The notes under the pieces: model-generated
What the model was told of the DNA's origin: nothing
Seen by the model: the letters and a program-made list of their open reading frames with translations, nothing else
The model's database searches: none
NCBI GenBank assembly: GCA_001779315.1
Contig: MFJU01000035.1
Span: forward strand, 1 to 61,246
DNA: 61,246 nucleotides
Direction: 5' to 3'
DNA from: Candidatus Gottesmanbacteria bacterium RIFCSPLOWO2_01_FULL_42_22
GTDB taxonomy: Bacteria > Patescibacteriota > Microgenomatia > 2-02-FULL-39-11
Part shown: in pieces, positions 1 through 4,057 of the stretch
Layout of the letters: each line of letters begins with the position of its first letter
Numbering within the stretch: position 1 is the first letter of the stretch
Translations under genes and position numbers: made by a program

Positions 1-792
1 TCTGCCTCTCGTTTTTAGCATTTCCTGCGCCGAATCAAAAAGTTTCTTTGAAATGATTGGCTCGTGCTTACCTTCGTGTATTTCACCACCATATTTGAAT
101 AGTCCGATATAAAATGGATTTGAAAGGATAAAAGAAGCTTTAGTTTTGGAGAATATCTTTCCGGAACGCGTAGTGATATGGTTTTTCGCCAAAAAGTTTG
201 ATATATCTTCTAGTCGCATATTTCCTTTGACATATTTTTCAAAAGCCAAGCGCACAACCTTAGCTTGTTTTTTATCTACCACGATTGTCTTTGTTCTCGA
301 ATCGTTGATATATCCGATTGGCGCTTGGCTTGGAAATATTCCCATCCTCACTTTTTGGCGAAGTCCTCGTTTCGTATTTTCGGAAAGAGAATCTACATAA
401 TATTTGCTTTGTCCGAAAGCGATATTGAGCATAAATTTTCCCTGCGAAGTATTTTCAAACCAAAATGTGGGAAATTTCAACATCAACAAATGCCCGCAGT
501 CCACGAGATATATTATTCTTCCACCGTCCACAGAATTGCGCGCGAGACGATCGGGGTTCCATGCCAAAATTCCTTGAGCTTCACCTTGCTCAATTCTTTT
601 CACCATATCGTTAAATATTTTACGCCCTGGAATTTTGGCAGATTGTTTCTCTATCAGTTCCTCGACCACATTCAGATTTTCTTGCCTCGCAAACGCGCGC
701 AATTCTGTGAGCTGTGCCTCAATACTCAAAACCTGCTTGTCCTCAACATCTGTGGACTTGCGGGCATACAAAAAGAATTTTTGTTCATTCAT
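1..792 (-). CDS. Large serine recombinase/integrase, N-terminal 264 codons. The 3' end lies beyond the left window edge. It is absent from the supplied ORF track because no stop codon is in-window.
   Basis: My own reverse-strand translation from the ATG at 792-790 reads MNEQKFFLYARKSTDVEDKQVLSIEAQLTELRAFARQENL...GILAWNPDRLARNSVDGGRIIYL...GIFPSQAPIGYINDSRTKTIVVD...FILSNPFYIGLFKYGGEIHEGKHEPIISKKLF. It has the resolvase-type YARxS catalytic motif followed by a recombinase domain. The frame is open through position 1. Confidence 0.85.
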   Translation of the reverse strand, partial: MNEQKFFLYARKSTDVEDKQVLSIEAQLTELRAFARQENLNVVEELIEKQSAKIPGRKIFNDMVKRIEQGEAQGILAWNPDRLARNSVDGGRIIYLVDCGHLLMLKFPTFWFENTSQGKFMLNIAFGQSKYYVDSLSENTKRGLRQKVRMGIFPSQAPIGYINDSRTKTIVVDKKQAKVVRLAFEKYVKGNMRLEDISNFLAKNHITTRSGKIFSKTKASFILSNPFYIGLFKYGGEIHEGKHEPIISKKLFDSAQEMLKTRGR

Positions 793-801
793 ATTTTTTA
801 A

Positions 802-872
802 AGCAGAAATGGTTATGCTAGGCTCACAATCTCAACGTAAATCAAAATTGTTCTAGCATAACCATTTCTGCT
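802..872. repeat. Perfect 20-bp inverted repeat with a 31-nt spacer, ending 9 nt upstream of the recombinase start codon.
   Basis: Arms 802-821 (AGCAGAAATGGTTATGCTAG) and 853-872 (CTAGCATAACCATTTCTGCT) are exact reverse complements. An inner ACAAT/ATTGT pair (826-830 / 847-851) extends the stem. Confidence 0.9.
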
Positions 873-937
873 GATTTACTAATAATAGTTGTGAGCATAG
901 TTAGTATATCAAAAATATTTCCACAACAAAAATTCTT

Positions 938-955
938 TTTGTCCTTTCGGACAAA
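938..955. terminator. Small hairpin TTTGTCC-TTTC-GGACAAA flanked by A/T runs. It may be a bidirectional terminator or insulator between the tRNA unit and the recombinase gene.
   Basis: It has a 7-bp stem and a tetraloop. It is followed by TTATTTTG on the plus strand and by AAAAAGAATTTTTG on the minus strand. Confidence 0.3.
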
Positions 956-972
956 TTATTTTGTATTGCACG

Positions 973-1059
973 GGATTCCGAACCTGCTTCTTGGCGAAAA
1001 AACAGTGCGCACCGCCCTAGGCGGTGCTGGATTCCGAACCCAGAATTCATTGGCGAAAA
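973..1059. repeat. Two copies of the composite motif GGATTCCGAACC-(N6/N9)-TTGGCGAAAA, with a period of about 56 bp, separated by a GC hairpin.
   Basis: GGATTCCGAACC occurs at 973-984 and 1029-1040. TTGGCGAAAA occurs at 991-1000 and 1050-1059. The hairpin GCACCGCC-CTA-GGCGGTGC lies at 1009-1027. On the minus strand the first motif reads GGTTCGGAATCC, which resembles a tRNA T-arm. Confidence 0.8.
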
Positions 1060-1072
1060 CGGGCGAAACAGC

Positions 1073-1097
1073 GTGGGCGGCGCTTTGCGCCGCCCAC
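1073..1097 (-). terminator. Strong GC hairpin about 35 nt downstream of tRNA-Leu; candidate intrinsic terminator for the tRNA.
   Basis: It has an 11-bp stem (GTGGGCGGCGC / GCGCCGCCCAC) and a TTT loop. On the minus strand it is followed by GCTGTTTCGCCCGTTTTCG, a moderately U-rich tail. Confidence 0.45.
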
Positions 1098-1131
1098 TCC
1101 TTAGTTCGTTCGAAACCGATTGGTTCCGTTT

Positions 1132-1220
1132 TGGTGCCGCGGGTCGGAGTCGAACCGACATGAGCTTTGTGGCCCACAGGTTTTTGAGACCTGCGCGTCT
1201 ACCAGTTCCGCCACCGCGGC
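1132..1220 (-). tRNA. tRNA-Leu (anticodon CAA), 89 nt, class II long variable arm, CCA encoded.
   Basis: The reverse complement is GCCGCGGTGGCGGAACTGGTAGACGCGCAGGTCTCAAAAACCTGTGGGCCACAAAGCTCATGTCGGTTCGACTCCGACCCGCGGCACCA. The acceptor stem is GCCGCGG/CCGCGGC. The anticodon stem is CAGGT/ACCTG with loop CTCAAAA. The T arm is GTCGG-TTCGACT-CCGAC. Confidence 0.95.
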
Positions 1221-1299
1221 AATTGACTGCCCCAATTATATTTTGTTAAACTGGAAGCAGTCAACTTCGGCCTATTATTAAAGGCTGTTTTTTTAGTTT

Positions 1300-2802
1300 A
1301 TGAAATTCACTCTGAAGGTAGCCAAGCCTCACAAATTGGCTGTTGACAGCCTCAATTTGTTTCTCTTCGAGGAAGACTTAGCCAAGTCTTTCAGTGATTT
1401 CCCGCCTCAAATTATAGTTCAAATCAAGGAAGCGTTAAATAAAGAAAATTTTAAAGGGGCCACTTCAGATCAATTAGTCATATCAGGCAGCCTGGACGAG
1501 GCAGCTTTTTATAAAATGAGCGTCAGCGGATTAGGAAAAAAAGCGGAATTCGATTTAGCCGCACTTTACGAATCTGTCGGCCGGTCAATCCGCTTGTCAC
1601 AGGGAACCAAAGCGGTAAAAATTGCTTTTGATTTGCCCCTATTTTGGCTGGATAAATTCGGACCGGAAAAGACGGTTGAAGCTGTTGTTATTGCTGCCAT
1701 GCTCTCATCTTATAAATTTTTAAAATATAAAAGCCAGGTAGAAATAAATAAAATCCGTCCCATTGAAGAAATTATCATGGTAATCCCGGCCCAGAAACTG
1801 GCTCAAGCGGAAGGTGGCATCAGAGGCGGTATTTTAATAGCCGGGGCTACCCTTTATGCGCGTGATTTGGTCAATGAACCGGCACAAATAACCACACCAC
1901 CCTTTTTAGCTGAGGAAGCTGTCAAAATTGCCAAAAATTCCAAAGGGGCGGTAACTGTGAAAATCTGGGAGGAAGATGAAATAAAAAAGAACAAAATGGA
2001 AGCCTTTTTAGGTGTCTCCAGAGGCAGCCACCAGCCCCCCAGATTTATTGTTATGCGCTATAAACCTGCTCGTTCCAGGAAAAAAATTGCCCTGTTGGGC
2101 AAGGGAATCACTTTTGACACCGGCGGTCTGTCTTTAAAGGGATCGGAACATATGGAAACCATGAAATTGGATATGGCCGGAGCGGCAGCAGTTTTGGGAG
2201 TTTTTTCCGTTATCGGGGAAATTAAACCCCCAATTGAAGTAGTCGGCTTAATTGCTGCCTGTGAGAATATGCCCGGGGGACGGGCATTAAAACCCGGTGA
2301 CATTCTTAAAGCGGCCAACGGCAAAACCATTGAAGTTTTAAATACCGATGCCGAAGGCAGGCTGACTTTGGCTGACTCCTTATCGTTTGCCGTAAAATCG
2401 GAAAAACCGGATGAAATGATAGATCTGGCAACTTTAACCGGAGCCTGTGTGGTAGCTTTGGGTGAAAATATTGCCGGGCTTTTCGGTAATGACGTAAAAC
2501 TCCTGGCGGCTTTGGAAAAAGCCTCAAATTCATCTGGTGACCGGGTCTGGCAGTTGCCTTTGGAAAAAAGTTATGCAGAGCTTATCAAAAGTCAAATTGC
2601 CGATATCAAAAATACGCAGACAGGCAAATACGGAGGAGCCATTACCGCCGCCCTTTTTCTTAATGAATTTACAGCTGATGTGCCTTGGGCGCATTTGGAT
2701 ATTGCCGGACCGGCCTTTGCTGAAAAGGTAACTCCACTGACAGCGGTTGGCGGCACTGGTTTCGGTGTCAGGCTTCTTTTAAATTATTTGAAGTCTGTTT
2801 AA
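1300..2802 (+). CDS. pepA: Leucyl aminopeptidase (M17 family).
   Basis: 500 aa. It carries the M17 signature NTDAEGRLTLAD and the GITFDTGGLSLK motif. Confidence 0.9.
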   Translation: MKFTLKVAKPHKLAVDSLNLFLFEEDLAKSFSDFPPQIIVQIKEALNKENFKGATSDQLVISGSLDEAAFYKMSVSGLGKKAEFDLAALYESVGRSIRLSQGTKAVKIAFDLPLFWLDKFGPEKTVEAVVIAAMLSSYKFLKYKSQVEINKIRPIEEIIMVIPAQKLAQAEGGIRGGILIAGATLYARDLVNEPAQITTPPFLAEEAVKIAKNSKGAVTVKIWEEDEIKKNKMEAFLGVSRGSHQPPRFIVMRYKPARSRKKIALLGKGITFDTGGLSLKGSEHMETMKLDMAGAAAVLGVFSVIGEIKPPIEVVGLIAACENMPGGRALKPGDILKAANGKTIEVLNTDAEGRLTLADSLSFAVKSEKPDEMIDLATLTGACVVALGENIAGLFGNDVKLLAALEKASNSSGDRVWQLPLEKSYAELIKSQIADIKNTQTGKYGGAITAALFLNEFTADVPWAHLDIAGPAFAEKVTPLTAVGGTGFGVRLLLNYLKSV

Positions 2803-2818
2803 ACTTCCCAAAAACAAT

Positions 2819-4057
2819 ATGTCATCGTCATACAGAGAGATAATAGGTAATTATTCTTTCCGCGTTTTATGGCTGGCGCAAATTATTTCACAGATTGCCA
2901 TGAACATGCTTTCTTTTGTTCTGGCGATTCAGGTTTATCAGAAAACTTTCTCCAATACCGCTGTTTCTTTAATGCTTTTGACATTCGGTATTCCTTCAAT
3001 CATCTTTGGCGTTTTAGCCGGGGGTATTGTTGACCGCTTTGATAAAAGAAAAATACTCATGTTCTGCAATTTGGGCCGGTTTTTCATTCTGATTGCTTAC
3101 GCCTTTTTCCATGAAAATTTGCTGATGCTCTATTTGCTTTCAATTGCCGTTTCCATTTTAACGCAGCTGTTCATTCCGGCTGAAGCCCCTTCAATCCCCC
3201 AACTTCTACCGAAAAAAAATCTAATGCCGGCCAATTCGCTCTTTACCATCACTTTTTATCTGTCAACCATAATCGGCTCCATTGCCGCCGGCCCCTTTCT
3301 AGGATCTATGGGATCTAGGACGGTCTTTTTAATGATGGCGGTCTTTATGTTTGCCGCTTTTGTTTTAACCAGCCGTTTGCCCGGTTTAATTTCGGGAAAT
3401 AAAACTGTTTTAAAATTAAATTTTCCCGGGTTGATTAAACCAATTTTCGAAGGATTCGTCTTTATTTACCGGCATCCGCGCATAAAACATAGTCTTTACC
3501 TGATGACTTTTTCACAGTCTTTGATTGTTACCTTGGCTGTTTTGGCACCGGGTTTTGCCCACAGGATTTTGATGACAGATATAAAAGATGCTTCTCTTTT
3601 GGTTTTGGGTCCGGCTGCACTTGGCATTATCTCGGGAGCTCTCCTGGTAGGCTCAATCGGTAACCGTTTTTTAAAAGGATCGCTGATTCTGACAGGACTT
3701 ATTATGACCGGGGTAAGTTTGATTCTTCTGGCCATTTTAAGCATGAATGTTTACGGCCCTATGTTATACTTTATCATGTTACTGTTGTTTCTGACCGGTT
3801 TGTCCAATTCTCTCATCAATGTACCGACATCGACCATATTGCAGCAGGAGTCTGAAACCGGAATACGGGGCCGGATATACGGCGTGATGACTTCTTTAAC
3901 AGGAGGTTTTTCCATTTTACCGGTTCTTTTTTCCGGTTTGATGGCAGACTTTGTCGGTATCAGCCGAACCTTGGTTGTTATCGGAATTTTTGTGCTGGGG
4001 ATGGCTGTATTTTATTTTATTAAAAGAAATAAATTAACCGCCTATCAACAGGTATGA
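2819..4057 (+). CDS. MFS transporter.
   Basis: 412 aa with about 12 hydrophobic helices. GGIVDRFDKRK matches MFS motif A (GxxxDRxGRR/K). Confidence 0.8.
   Translation: MSSSYREIIGNYSFRVLWLAQIISQIAMNMLSFVLAIQVYQKTFSNTAVSLMLLTFGIPSIIFGVLAGGIVDRFDKRKILMFCNLGRFFILIAYAFFHENLLMLYLLSIAVSILTQLFIPAEAPSIPQLLPKKNLMPANSLFTITFYLSTIIGSIAAGPFLGSMGSRTVFLMMAVFMFAAFVLTSRLPGLISGNKTVLKLNFPGLIKPIFEGFVFIYRHPRIKHSLYLMTFSQSLIVTLAVLAPGFAHRILMTDIKDASLLVLGPAALGIISGALLVGSIGNRFLKGSLILTGLIMTGVSLILLAILSMNVYGPMLYFIMLLLFLTGLSNSLINVPTSTILQQESETGIRGRIYGVMTSLTGGFSILPVLFSGLMADFVGISRTLVVIGIFVLGMAVFYFIKRNKLTAYQQV

Follow-up and report, generated by a model that had tools for sequence, protein, structure and literature searches.

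Phage-type large serine recombinases (LSRs) mostly serve phages of 40-130 kb and target protein-coding genes. The SCCmec/Ccr cassettes are also mobilised by an LSR, carry cargo without phage or conjugation genes, and sit at the 3′ end of a conserved housekeeping gene. The invertase Hin has about 190 amino acids (aa) and a C-terminal helix-turn-helix, works on 26-bp hix sites, and requires an enhancer and Fis. The tycheposons of Prochlorococcus, as far as the accessible text of the source goes, are small cargo elements at the 3′ side of particular tRNA genes that build variable islands in which newer insertions push older material outward (10.1101/2020.12.28.424599). The same text gives a tyrosine recombinase as their hallmark, carried by 474 of 501, and partial tRNA direct repeats as their ends (10.1101/2020.12.28.424599). 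The locus described here lies at the start of contig MFJU01000035.1 (C35) of Candidatus Gottesmanbacteria bacterium RIFCSPLOWO2_01_FULL_42_22 (genome G000; 1.42 Mb, 42 contigs, 93% complete). The window, that is, the whole stretch of DNA analysed, comprises 61,246 nucleotides (nt; C35:1-61246) and opens with an LSR gene beside tRNA-Leu(CAA). Its positions 1-1136 are likely the tRNA-proximal end of a compact integrative element with its crossover at a short core, a reading to which we assign a probability of roughly 70%. This copy very probably belongs to a family of elements in which inverted arms flank the recombinase gene and a tRNA marks one end.

A gene for a serine recombinase on the minus strand (792..1), unlisted in the supplied track of open reading frames (ORFs), had been proposed from the letters alone (hereafter the sequence-only reading) on account of a YARKST motif, and this proposal is borne out. 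The frame is stop-free for 264 codons from an ATG at 792 to position 1, where its 3′ end is open, and YARKST occupies residues 9-14 as the serine motif Y-x-R-x-S-T. Two of the Pfam families whose search had been advised gave matches passing the cut-off, Resolvase (PF00239, E 1.1e-18, aa 7-151) and, C-terminal to this catalytic domain, Recombinase (PF07508, E 1.3e-18, aa 175-262). The plus-strand ORFs that the track shows there, 146-400 and 265-801, exist as mechanical open frames, for which Pfam gives one sub-threshold match (E 0.021) and none, respectively. As contig C35 starts at window position 1, the gene is broken by the contig end and not by mutation, and it is almost certainly a truncated LSR gene. 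A full-length homologue at locus L136, 98% identical in protein over the shared 262 residues and part of a cassette of 92% nucleotide identity, carries Zn_ribbon_recom (PF13408, E 1.9e-10) in the region that for the window gene lies beyond the contig end; the zinc ribbon is also present in a paralogue on contig C28 of the same genome (E 3.3e-08). Two of the three LSR domains are thus present in the window and the third is seen in its 98%-identical homologue. Full-length relatives have 500-550 aa with recombinase and zinc-ribbon domains, and sequence relatives in PDB are the A118 integrase and SPbeta SprA/YokA (E about 1e-6). A search of the genome for the missing 3′ half, with the C28 paralogue and the L136 C-terminus as queries, returned only the window's arm and the paralogue, and further copies of the window arm and spacer were not found there.

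Complete relatives have the order tRNA / arm – leader – LSR gene – inverted arm / FlankA – cargo – inverted FlankA / displaced tRNA trailer. The arrangement tRNA / arm–LSR–arm / FlankA–cargo–FlankA′ / other DNA holds in 4/4 long contigs, two of them from closed genomes, with element sizes of 4.1-6.3 kb and cargo of 2-4 kb. The arms are usually 80-200 nt long and often 100% identical. At 72 loci each of the two arms opens with the end of the local tRNA, namely its last acceptor base, discriminator and CCA: CACCA for Leu, Val and most Arg, (G)CTCCA for most Gly and Thr, and GCCCCA for His. Read away from the tRNA, an arm presents GC hairpins and a T run that are terminator-like by consensus match; read the opposite way at the 3′ end of the gene, it encodes the last ~50 residues of the LSR. 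FlankA, outside the upstream arm, is a non-coding stretch of 50-490 nt that ends with the region's best promoter-like site (by consensus match), directed across the junction. It is conserved between loci at different tRNAs, 59/70 resembling the FlankA of another locus, and therefore belongs to the element. Many loci have a second, inverted FlankA 1.6-4.2 kb further out with varied genes between the two, and in the nine loci listed the distal FlankA matches the proximal copy without a difference as far as the core (CAC in 6/9), beyond which the two diverge. In all four long contigs the three junction types share CAC to CACCAA, and such a core of 3-6 nt is what a serine-recombinase crossover would be expected to leave. 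L220 and L219 have a terminator-like hairpin after the distal core, as would a displaced tRNA trailer. The boundary repeats anticipated by the sequence-only reading do exist, not as a simple direct repeat of a tRNA fragment but as this core together with two nested pairs of long inverted repeats.

What is left of this anatomy in the window begins at the tRNA (Table 1). The sequence-only reading had placed a co-oriented tRNA-Leu about 340 bp from the gene, with hairpins and repeats rather than genes in between. Indeed, tRNA-Leu(CAA) lies on the strand of the LSR frame, its 3′ end 339 nt away from the ATG, and the interval has the perfect 20-bp inverted repeat, a 12-nt direct repeat (973-984/1029-1040) and GC-rich hairpins, with no supported gene. 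The window arm is 98% identical to the L136 arm and aligns to both arms of other cassettes (e.g. L078, L073, L061). The similarity of L136 and L135 to the window starts exactly at 1136, and plus-strand positions 981-1136 encode a peptide 96% identical to the 52 C-terminal residues of the L136 recombinase. The arm also supplies the CA of this tRNA's CCA: in the same-genus genome G012 the same tRNA-Leu(CAA) end lacks the CA, and unrelated sequence follows CAC. CCA is encoded by only 6/42 tRNA genes of the present genome, tRNA-Leu(CAA) being among the six. The spacer of 186 nt (164-192 nt in relatives) is conserved in sequence with its relatives, and RNA from 785-985 folds far better than shuffled sequences (z = -7.7). 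The leader hairpin also occurs in L078 and is matched in L081, L120 and L122; the A/T box is also found upstream of the ATG in L007, L008, L009, L022, L023 and L078.

Table 1. Features at the left end of the window (a point marks features without strand)
Feature	Position	Strand	Basis
LSR gene, 5′ part, 264 codons	1..792	-	Open frame, Pfam, identity to L136
Spacer from arm to ATG, LSR leader/promoter region	793..978	-	Length and conservation
Perfect 20-bp inverted repeat (hairpin), 802-821/853-872, ending 9 nt before ATG	802..872	.	Repeat scan
Conserved near-palindromic A/T box upstream of leader hairpin	925..942	.	Inverted-repeat pair I4
Arm, one copy of a 158-nt inverted repeat that flanks the LSR gene in complete relatives	979..1136	.	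Alignments
Terminator-like GC hairpin and T run in arm, reading away from tRNA	1009..1027	-	Consensus match; same feature in both L136 arms
Core CACCA (last acceptor base, discriminator A, CCA), also outer end of arm; putative crossover region	1132..1136	-	Junction comparisons
tRNA-Leu(CAA), probable integration target	1132..1220	-	ARAGORN; Rfam tRNA 1135-1220, 57.3 bits
Promoter-like site TTGACT-18-TATAAT upstream of tRNA	1235..1264	-	11/12 matches; consensus match only

Comparison with relatives for an unoccupied site, as had been suggested, gave a uniform picture. In 17/17 relatives with enough flank (an eighteenth contig was too short), pepA (Peptidase_M17) adjoins tRNA-Leu(CAA), dnaB lies convergently on the 3′ side of the tRNA, and no LSR is present (0/17). 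The gap between dnaB and the tRNA is about 0-74 nt in five genomes, 277-738 nt in five and 1.3-3.1 kb in seven, so the site appears to be a hotspot. Partial copies of tRNA-Leu, from the anticodon or T arm to the 3′ end, were observed 20-110 nt past the intact tRNA-Leu(CAA) in L042 (G016), L044 (G019) and L050 (G001), that of G001 being followed by an arm-like start; such copies look like scars of earlier integrations.

In the genome under study dnaB is found on another contig (C20:4034-5383), 4 kb from its start, and the DNA before it has the features of the missing far end of the element. C20 1-68 recurs inverted, with 100% identity, at C20 2259-2326, and the pair brackets a gene for a 674-aa protein that is 87% identical in nucleotides to cargo of L172, a locus whose recombinase is 83% identical to that of the window. 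C20 2266-2546 matches the FlankA directly before the arms of L135, L136, L139 and L142, and the FlankA copy at C20 2259-2541 ends with a promoter-like site and the core CACCA. The contiguous FlankA/arm of L136 is thus split here between C20:2421-2546 (86%) and window 1136-975 (98%), as would be the products of recombination between attP and attB attachment (att) sites. C20 is probably the continuation of the window element, a join that rests on synteny and the logic of the repeats. The order would be tRNA-Leu / arm – leader – recombinase – about 0.94 kb unassembled – C20:1 – cargo – FlankA / core, the unassembled part comprising the 3′ part of the gene, the second arm and the rest of the inverted FlankA; beyond the C20 core would follow 125 nt of arm-like DNA, a racemase gene, two small genes and dnaB. 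We infer an element of about 4.6 kb core to core. Accordingly, the suggestion that the window shows the edge of an inserted element whose cargo lies off to the left is supported by the element repeats that flank the 674-aa gene beside dnaB. The 674-aa protein itself (C20:215-2239, L054) has sub-threshold Pfam similarity to the PARP catalytic domain and DUF3990 (aa 169-254), which hints at an ADP-ribosyltransferase-like fold. Between the racemase gene and dnaB, C20:3453-3963 (L054) encodes a DUF5678 protein (69 aa) and a retropepsin-like aspartyl protease (95 aa), and this region has no match in the locus of the same-genus relative.

How widely the arrangement recurs was surveyed at three scales. 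Within the bacterial family, homologues (E <= 1e-10) occur in 16/21 genomes, with up to five matches per genome, and a tRNA lies at the recombinase gene in 26/30 loci, many different tRNAs being used. All nine complete loci of the bacterial family with >=50% identity have arms, of 78-103 nt and 96-100% identity, and the C28 paralogue of the present genome is counted among the nine. Wider scans covered a metagenome collection, with at least 584 relatives, and a species-genome collection, with at least 572; the best 80 of each gave 160 loci of 67-98% identity. Recombinase-flanking inverted repeats are present in 118/160, and the 95 arm pairs not cut by contig ends have a median length of 137 nt (range 35-201), 44 being 100% identical, 29 at 97-<100% and 22 lower. 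No tRNA was seen at 54/160 loci, many of them cut by contig ends. PepA and DnaB were not found in the 80 metagenome loci, so that none of these is the same chromosomal site as the window. Finally, matches at E <= 1e-40 occur in 154/401 evenly sampled genomes of the phylum (142/339 of those of high quality).

The survey also revealed a strong bias of orientation. Of the 26 tRNA loci in the bacterial family, 24 are convergent, the tRNA 3′ end meeting the gene 3′ end. The two that are co-oriented, with the tRNA upstream, are the window and L013 (77%, its closest relative in the bacterial family), both broken by a contig end within the gene. Among the 160 wider loci, 100 are convergent with the tRNA and four co-oriented (L071, L146, L154, L211). 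The window thus shows the rarer state, in which the 5′ end of the LSR gene is next to the tRNA and both read in the same direction. Neither this rarer orientation nor the great abundance of the family had been anticipated by the sequence-only reading.

Under the integrative reading, insertion would have taken place at the discriminator/CCA, the very 3′ terminus of tRNA-Leu(CAA). The LSR would recombine a FlankA/arm junction, attP-like and with both halves from the element, with an attB-like tRNA/trailer site through a 2-nt staggered cut inside the shared CAC core; the 3-6 nt core common to the three junction types is indirect evidence for att-site recombination of this kind. The products would be tRNA/arm and FlankA/trailer, with the arm handing the tRNA its CCA and a terminator. 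The excised form would carry two inverted FlankA+arm copies, and integration via either would give the two orientations and leave one intact copy inside the element. Alternatively, the two orientations could arise later, if segments flip by recombination between the repeats. We infer excision and inversion, as well as the join of the contigs. Two sets of loci fit either route: L070 and L071 share 1828 nt at 100%, with tRNA to the left of the core in one and FlankA in the other, and in L058, L074, L198, L128 and L068 an inverted FlankA follows the second arm. Relative to the recombinase, the cargo gene that L172 and this genome have in common lies on the same strand in both states, which, in this one comparison, fits alternative integration better than a single flip.

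It is also possible, if rather unlikely, that the arm–LSR–arm unit is a resident segment with the gene inside it, as in Hin, flipped in situ by the LSR, or by RecA acting on arms of 80-200 nt, and that the window shows the flipped state. A flip would alter which promoter, that of the tRNA or of FlankA, reads into the recombinase gene and what the FlankA promoter reads. Such switching is compatible with an integrative origin, since integration could have happened once and flipping afterwards. That nearly half of the uncut arm pairs (44/95) are perfect matches, in spite of the differences between arms of separate loci, implies that the two copies still exchange sequence, whether by gene conversion or by flipping, and both orientations and both kinds of flipped junction occur. 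Furthermore, contigs in the rare orientation nearly always end at or before the other arm, as mixed populations would give (the window, L013, L071, L146, L211, L058, L074, L128). However, a single flip would set recombinase and cargo on opposed strands, which is not what the comparison with L172 gives, though this is one pair and the cargo segment has its own inverted repeats. A ratio of 100 to 4 is also unlike a freely switching segment, and the pairing of an attL-type with an attP-type site is not known to be a normal LSR reaction. Strand-changing joints were not seen in four public sequencing runs from different studies, but these are stored as contigs built with 31-letter words (k=31), which cannot cross the arms, and their absence is therefore uninformative for or against inversion.

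Several observations weigh against the integrative reading we prefer. Members of the bacterial family below about 45% identity gave no long inverted repeats in the repeat scan, those at 24-41% identity nevertheless having the tRNA. As all loci were chosen by similarity to the window protein and are related by descent, the counts given above are not independent. For the window copy itself, the second arm, the 3′ half of the LSR gene and the C35-C20 join are not in the assembly. Its distal core leads into arm-like DNA resembling the arms of L101 instead of a plain tRNA trailer, and so the history here is more complex than one insertion. No excised circle, no pair of empty and filled sites in one population and no strand-switching read was seen in data whose k=31 contigs cannot bridge the arms. 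An LSR needs only about 50 bp, and integration alone does not explain arms of 150 nt that are 100% identical. If both att-like copies are equivalent, the 100:4 bias needs an extra cause. In addition, promoters and terminators were called by consensus match only. Serine-recombinase biology offers no ready explanation for a mirrored repeat that contains the C-terminal coding end of the LSR.

The sequence-only reading had taken the recombinase for the edge of a prophage or an integrative and conjugative element (ICE), and a prophage, ICE or large island with many genes to the left of the window would account for an LSR beside a tRNA at a contig end. The dnaB-tRNA interval is indeed a variable hotspot, with gaps of 0 to 3 kb, and a few relatives lie at the ends of contigs filed as viral. 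Nevertheless, this explanation is now largely refuted and highly improbable. In 4/4 long or closed contigs the whole element between tRNA and displaced trailer is only 4.1-6.3 kb, with 2-4 kb of accessory genes, and C20 reaches dnaB within 4 kb. Pfam analysis of 20 cargo and neighbouring proteins identified a racemase, a methyltransferase, a deacetylase-like protein, a hydrolase, a type IIG restriction-modification enzyme and membrane proteins, whereas families for capsid, terminase, portal or conjugation proteins were not among the matches; an ABC transporter is also among the element cargo. Moreover, a viral collection of 2.9 million contigs holds two relatives, both truncated at contig ends, compared with the at least 584 and at least 572 of the other two collections.

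The four public runs also bear on why the contig ends where it does. The single-copy flank at 1300-3000 has a summed word depth of 7-45 in the four runs, and the contig-end stretch one of 175-22050, with pieces of the gene and of the region before it reaching hundreds to 22,000; bin 801-900, without cover in runs X1 and X2, was not counted as a finding. Contig C35 stops in a stretch that is common to far more community DNA than this genome supplies. About 0.94 kb is lacking from the assembly, comprising the 3′ half of the LSR gene, the second arm and part of FlankA; all are repeats found across the community, which is why they were not assembled. Loose contig ends at window 1066 (all four runs) and 1117 (run X7) are best read as other cassettes that share part of the arm; L080, for example, matches 1066-1136 at 96%. 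A great many homologues in the phylum sample and the metagenome loci start 200-550 nt from a contig end, many of them at 300-470 nt, which means that these elements repeatedly interrupt Patescibacteria assemblies at tRNA loci.

The same depth data speak to whether such elements still move. They could be immobile relics or domesticated recombinases, that is, old and vertically inherited fixtures at tRNA genes, and the repeated pairing of particular tRNA types with related recombinases in different genera of the family (Trp in G000 and G007, Glu-CTC in G009 and G004, Asn in three genomes) would agree with this, as would broken copies such as L020, with four stops, and L093, L100, L128, L159, L181 and L213, with short frames. 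We nonetheless consider this very unlikely. Cassettes of 92% nucleotide identity sit at different tRNAs, Leu-CAA in the window and, in the common orientation, Leu-TAA in L136. The record titles of proteins 67-98% identical name many different Patescibacteria groups. Added to this are the absence of an LSR at tRNA-Leu(CAA) in all 17 relatives and, in four communities, a hundreds-fold excess depth of gene and arm stretches at least 95% alike to those of the window.

The genome also has a second complete cassette (C28:3783-5494; L002 1133-2845; L024), that of the C28 paralogue, with a recombinase 54% identical to the window's and 113-nt inverted repeats (90%), one of which directly adjoins tRNA-Trp(CCA) at its 3′ end, gene and tRNA converging as is usual in the family. 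Sequence upstream of this cassette recurs in weak copies (75-96%) at C19:21695-21828, C19:22579-22634 and C28:474-553; the C19 set adjoins tRNA-Thr/Tyr, and these may be remnants of related elements. In L002 (869-951), L008, L009, L022 and L023, interleaved inverted repeats A-B-A′-B′ are found just upstream of the ATG, in which B/B′ are conserved and GC-rich and A/A′ vary yet stay complementary. The structure lies outside the arm in C28 and inside it in the others, the window having a plain hairpin only, and it could be a pseudoknot-like leader or a protein-binding site. Rfam returned nothing but tRNAs on ten loci. Solo arm remnants might be present at the five other tRNAs of this genome that encode CCA (Gly-CCC, Pro-CGG, Arg-GCG, Arg-TCG, Pro-TGG). 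The 28 nt at the 3′ end of tRNA-Leu(CAA) (1134-1161) are 96% identical to the 3′ part of a tRNA-Phe towards the opposite end of contig C35 (C35:116301-116328), perhaps by chance or through a shared acceptor and T-arm.

Some loci depart from the common plan. Two of the 160 have tRNAs on both sides, L190 with Arg/Leu and L176 with Arg/Tyr, and L154 has Met and a Met-like second end; such an arrangement suggests that cassettes residing at different tRNAs have recombined, or that insertion took place where two tRNAs converge. L204 and L205 are 99.96% identical over 4548 nt and split 12 nt past the arm, in the T-arm of tRNA-Leu(TAA), the rest of which L204 lacks, and this may be a different rearrangement or a mis-join. 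In L061 (1020-1050) the promoter-like end of the distal FlankA is directly before the start codon of a host-side gene of 194 aa, so that the element may drive its neighbour. Three further interpretations were rejected. The arms are not the terminal repeats of a minimal unit like an insertion sequence, as the FlankA beyond the arm is conserved and mobile and the trailer comes beyond the second FlankA. L068 is not a circular contig, since its ends repeat directly at only 83% over 89 nt; it is a chain of three FlankA/arm units. Mimicry of the tRNA T-arm, considered because GGTTC is strand-biased in arms (66:15), was dropped, as the motif coincides with codons of a conserved tail motif. In FlankA a GGTTC-like motif starts 21-23 nt from the core in 47/102 ends, within the promoter-like spacer.

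These results point to a family of LSR elements with a mirrored-repeat layout that is apparently undescribed, large and common in Patescibacteria. Full-text searches of the literature, with subscription journals and supplements outside their coverage, listed no description of this architecture, and the term undescribed is thus provisional. Tentatively, the elements of this phylum may be pictured, once excised, as circles of a recombinase and a cargo segment split by two inverted, att-bearing repeats. They would land on the discriminator/CCA of almost any tRNA in either orientation and rebuild its CCA and terminator, and their FlankA promoters would drive the recombinase, the cargo or a host neighbour; the orientation in the window would then be an 'on' or pre-excision state driven by the tRNA promoter. 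Patescibacteria have tiny genomes, and a family present in 154/401 sampled genomes, often in several copies, whose cargo serves restriction-modification, transport and metabolism, may be a principal means by which they exchange genes. Serine integrases with short, defined sites underlie many genome-engineering tools. A natural set of integrases that targets conserved tRNA ends, with both site partners readable from genomes, could provide tools for a phylum with almost none. In metagenome-assembled genomes, contigs break systematically at tRNA loci because of these elements, and the window itself is an example.

Among known systems, the phage-type LSRs (A118/LI integrase, SPbeta SprA, Bxb1, phiC31) have the same domain order of resolvase, recombinase and zinc ribbon and include the relatives with solved structures, and the junction core here is very short, as a 2-nt crossover would give. 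In contrast to them, the recombinase here belongs to a 4-6 kb element without phage genes, its target is the last bases of many tRNA genes, and long perfect inverted repeats enclose its gene and take in the 3′ coding end of that gene. The Hin segment of Salmonella (Hin/Gin/Cin/Pin) likewise has the recombinase inside an inverted-repeat segment found in both orientations, whereas here the protein has at least 500 aa with a zinc ribbon, the repeats are 80-200 nt long, a tRNA is at one end and the whole unit is apparently an insertion. Membership of the small serine invertases (Hin/Gin) is ruled out by the 500-550 aa relatives with a zinc ribbon and by the repeats of 80-200 nt, no search for an enhancer having been made. 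Like tycheposons, insofar as the accessible text on these describes them, the elements bring cargo to the 3′ side of a tRNA; unlike them they have an LSR, a core of 3-6 nt and two pairs of inverted repeats, and that class is ruled out since an LSR is the sole recombinase in the elements examined. SCCmec/Ccr cassettes target rlmH and not a tRNA, are larger, use paired CcrAB or single CcrC, and are without the mirrored arm/FlankA structure. In architecture only, the excised element would resemble the yeast 2-micron plasmid with its FLP/FRT system, being a circle of two unique segments and two long inverted repeats with recombinase sites; FLP, however, is a tyrosine recombinase of a replicating eukaryotic plasmid, and here no circle and no replication function was seen. 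With the site empty in 17/17 relatives, the tRNA of G012 without CA, a trailer in L219 and L220 and the window's distal end probably on C20, the element works as integrative islands that target tRNAs do. Prophage, ICE, Hin-type system and tycheposon are all rejected, a defining feature of each having been looked for and not found, and the enzyme of the element is itself a member of the known large serine recombinases.

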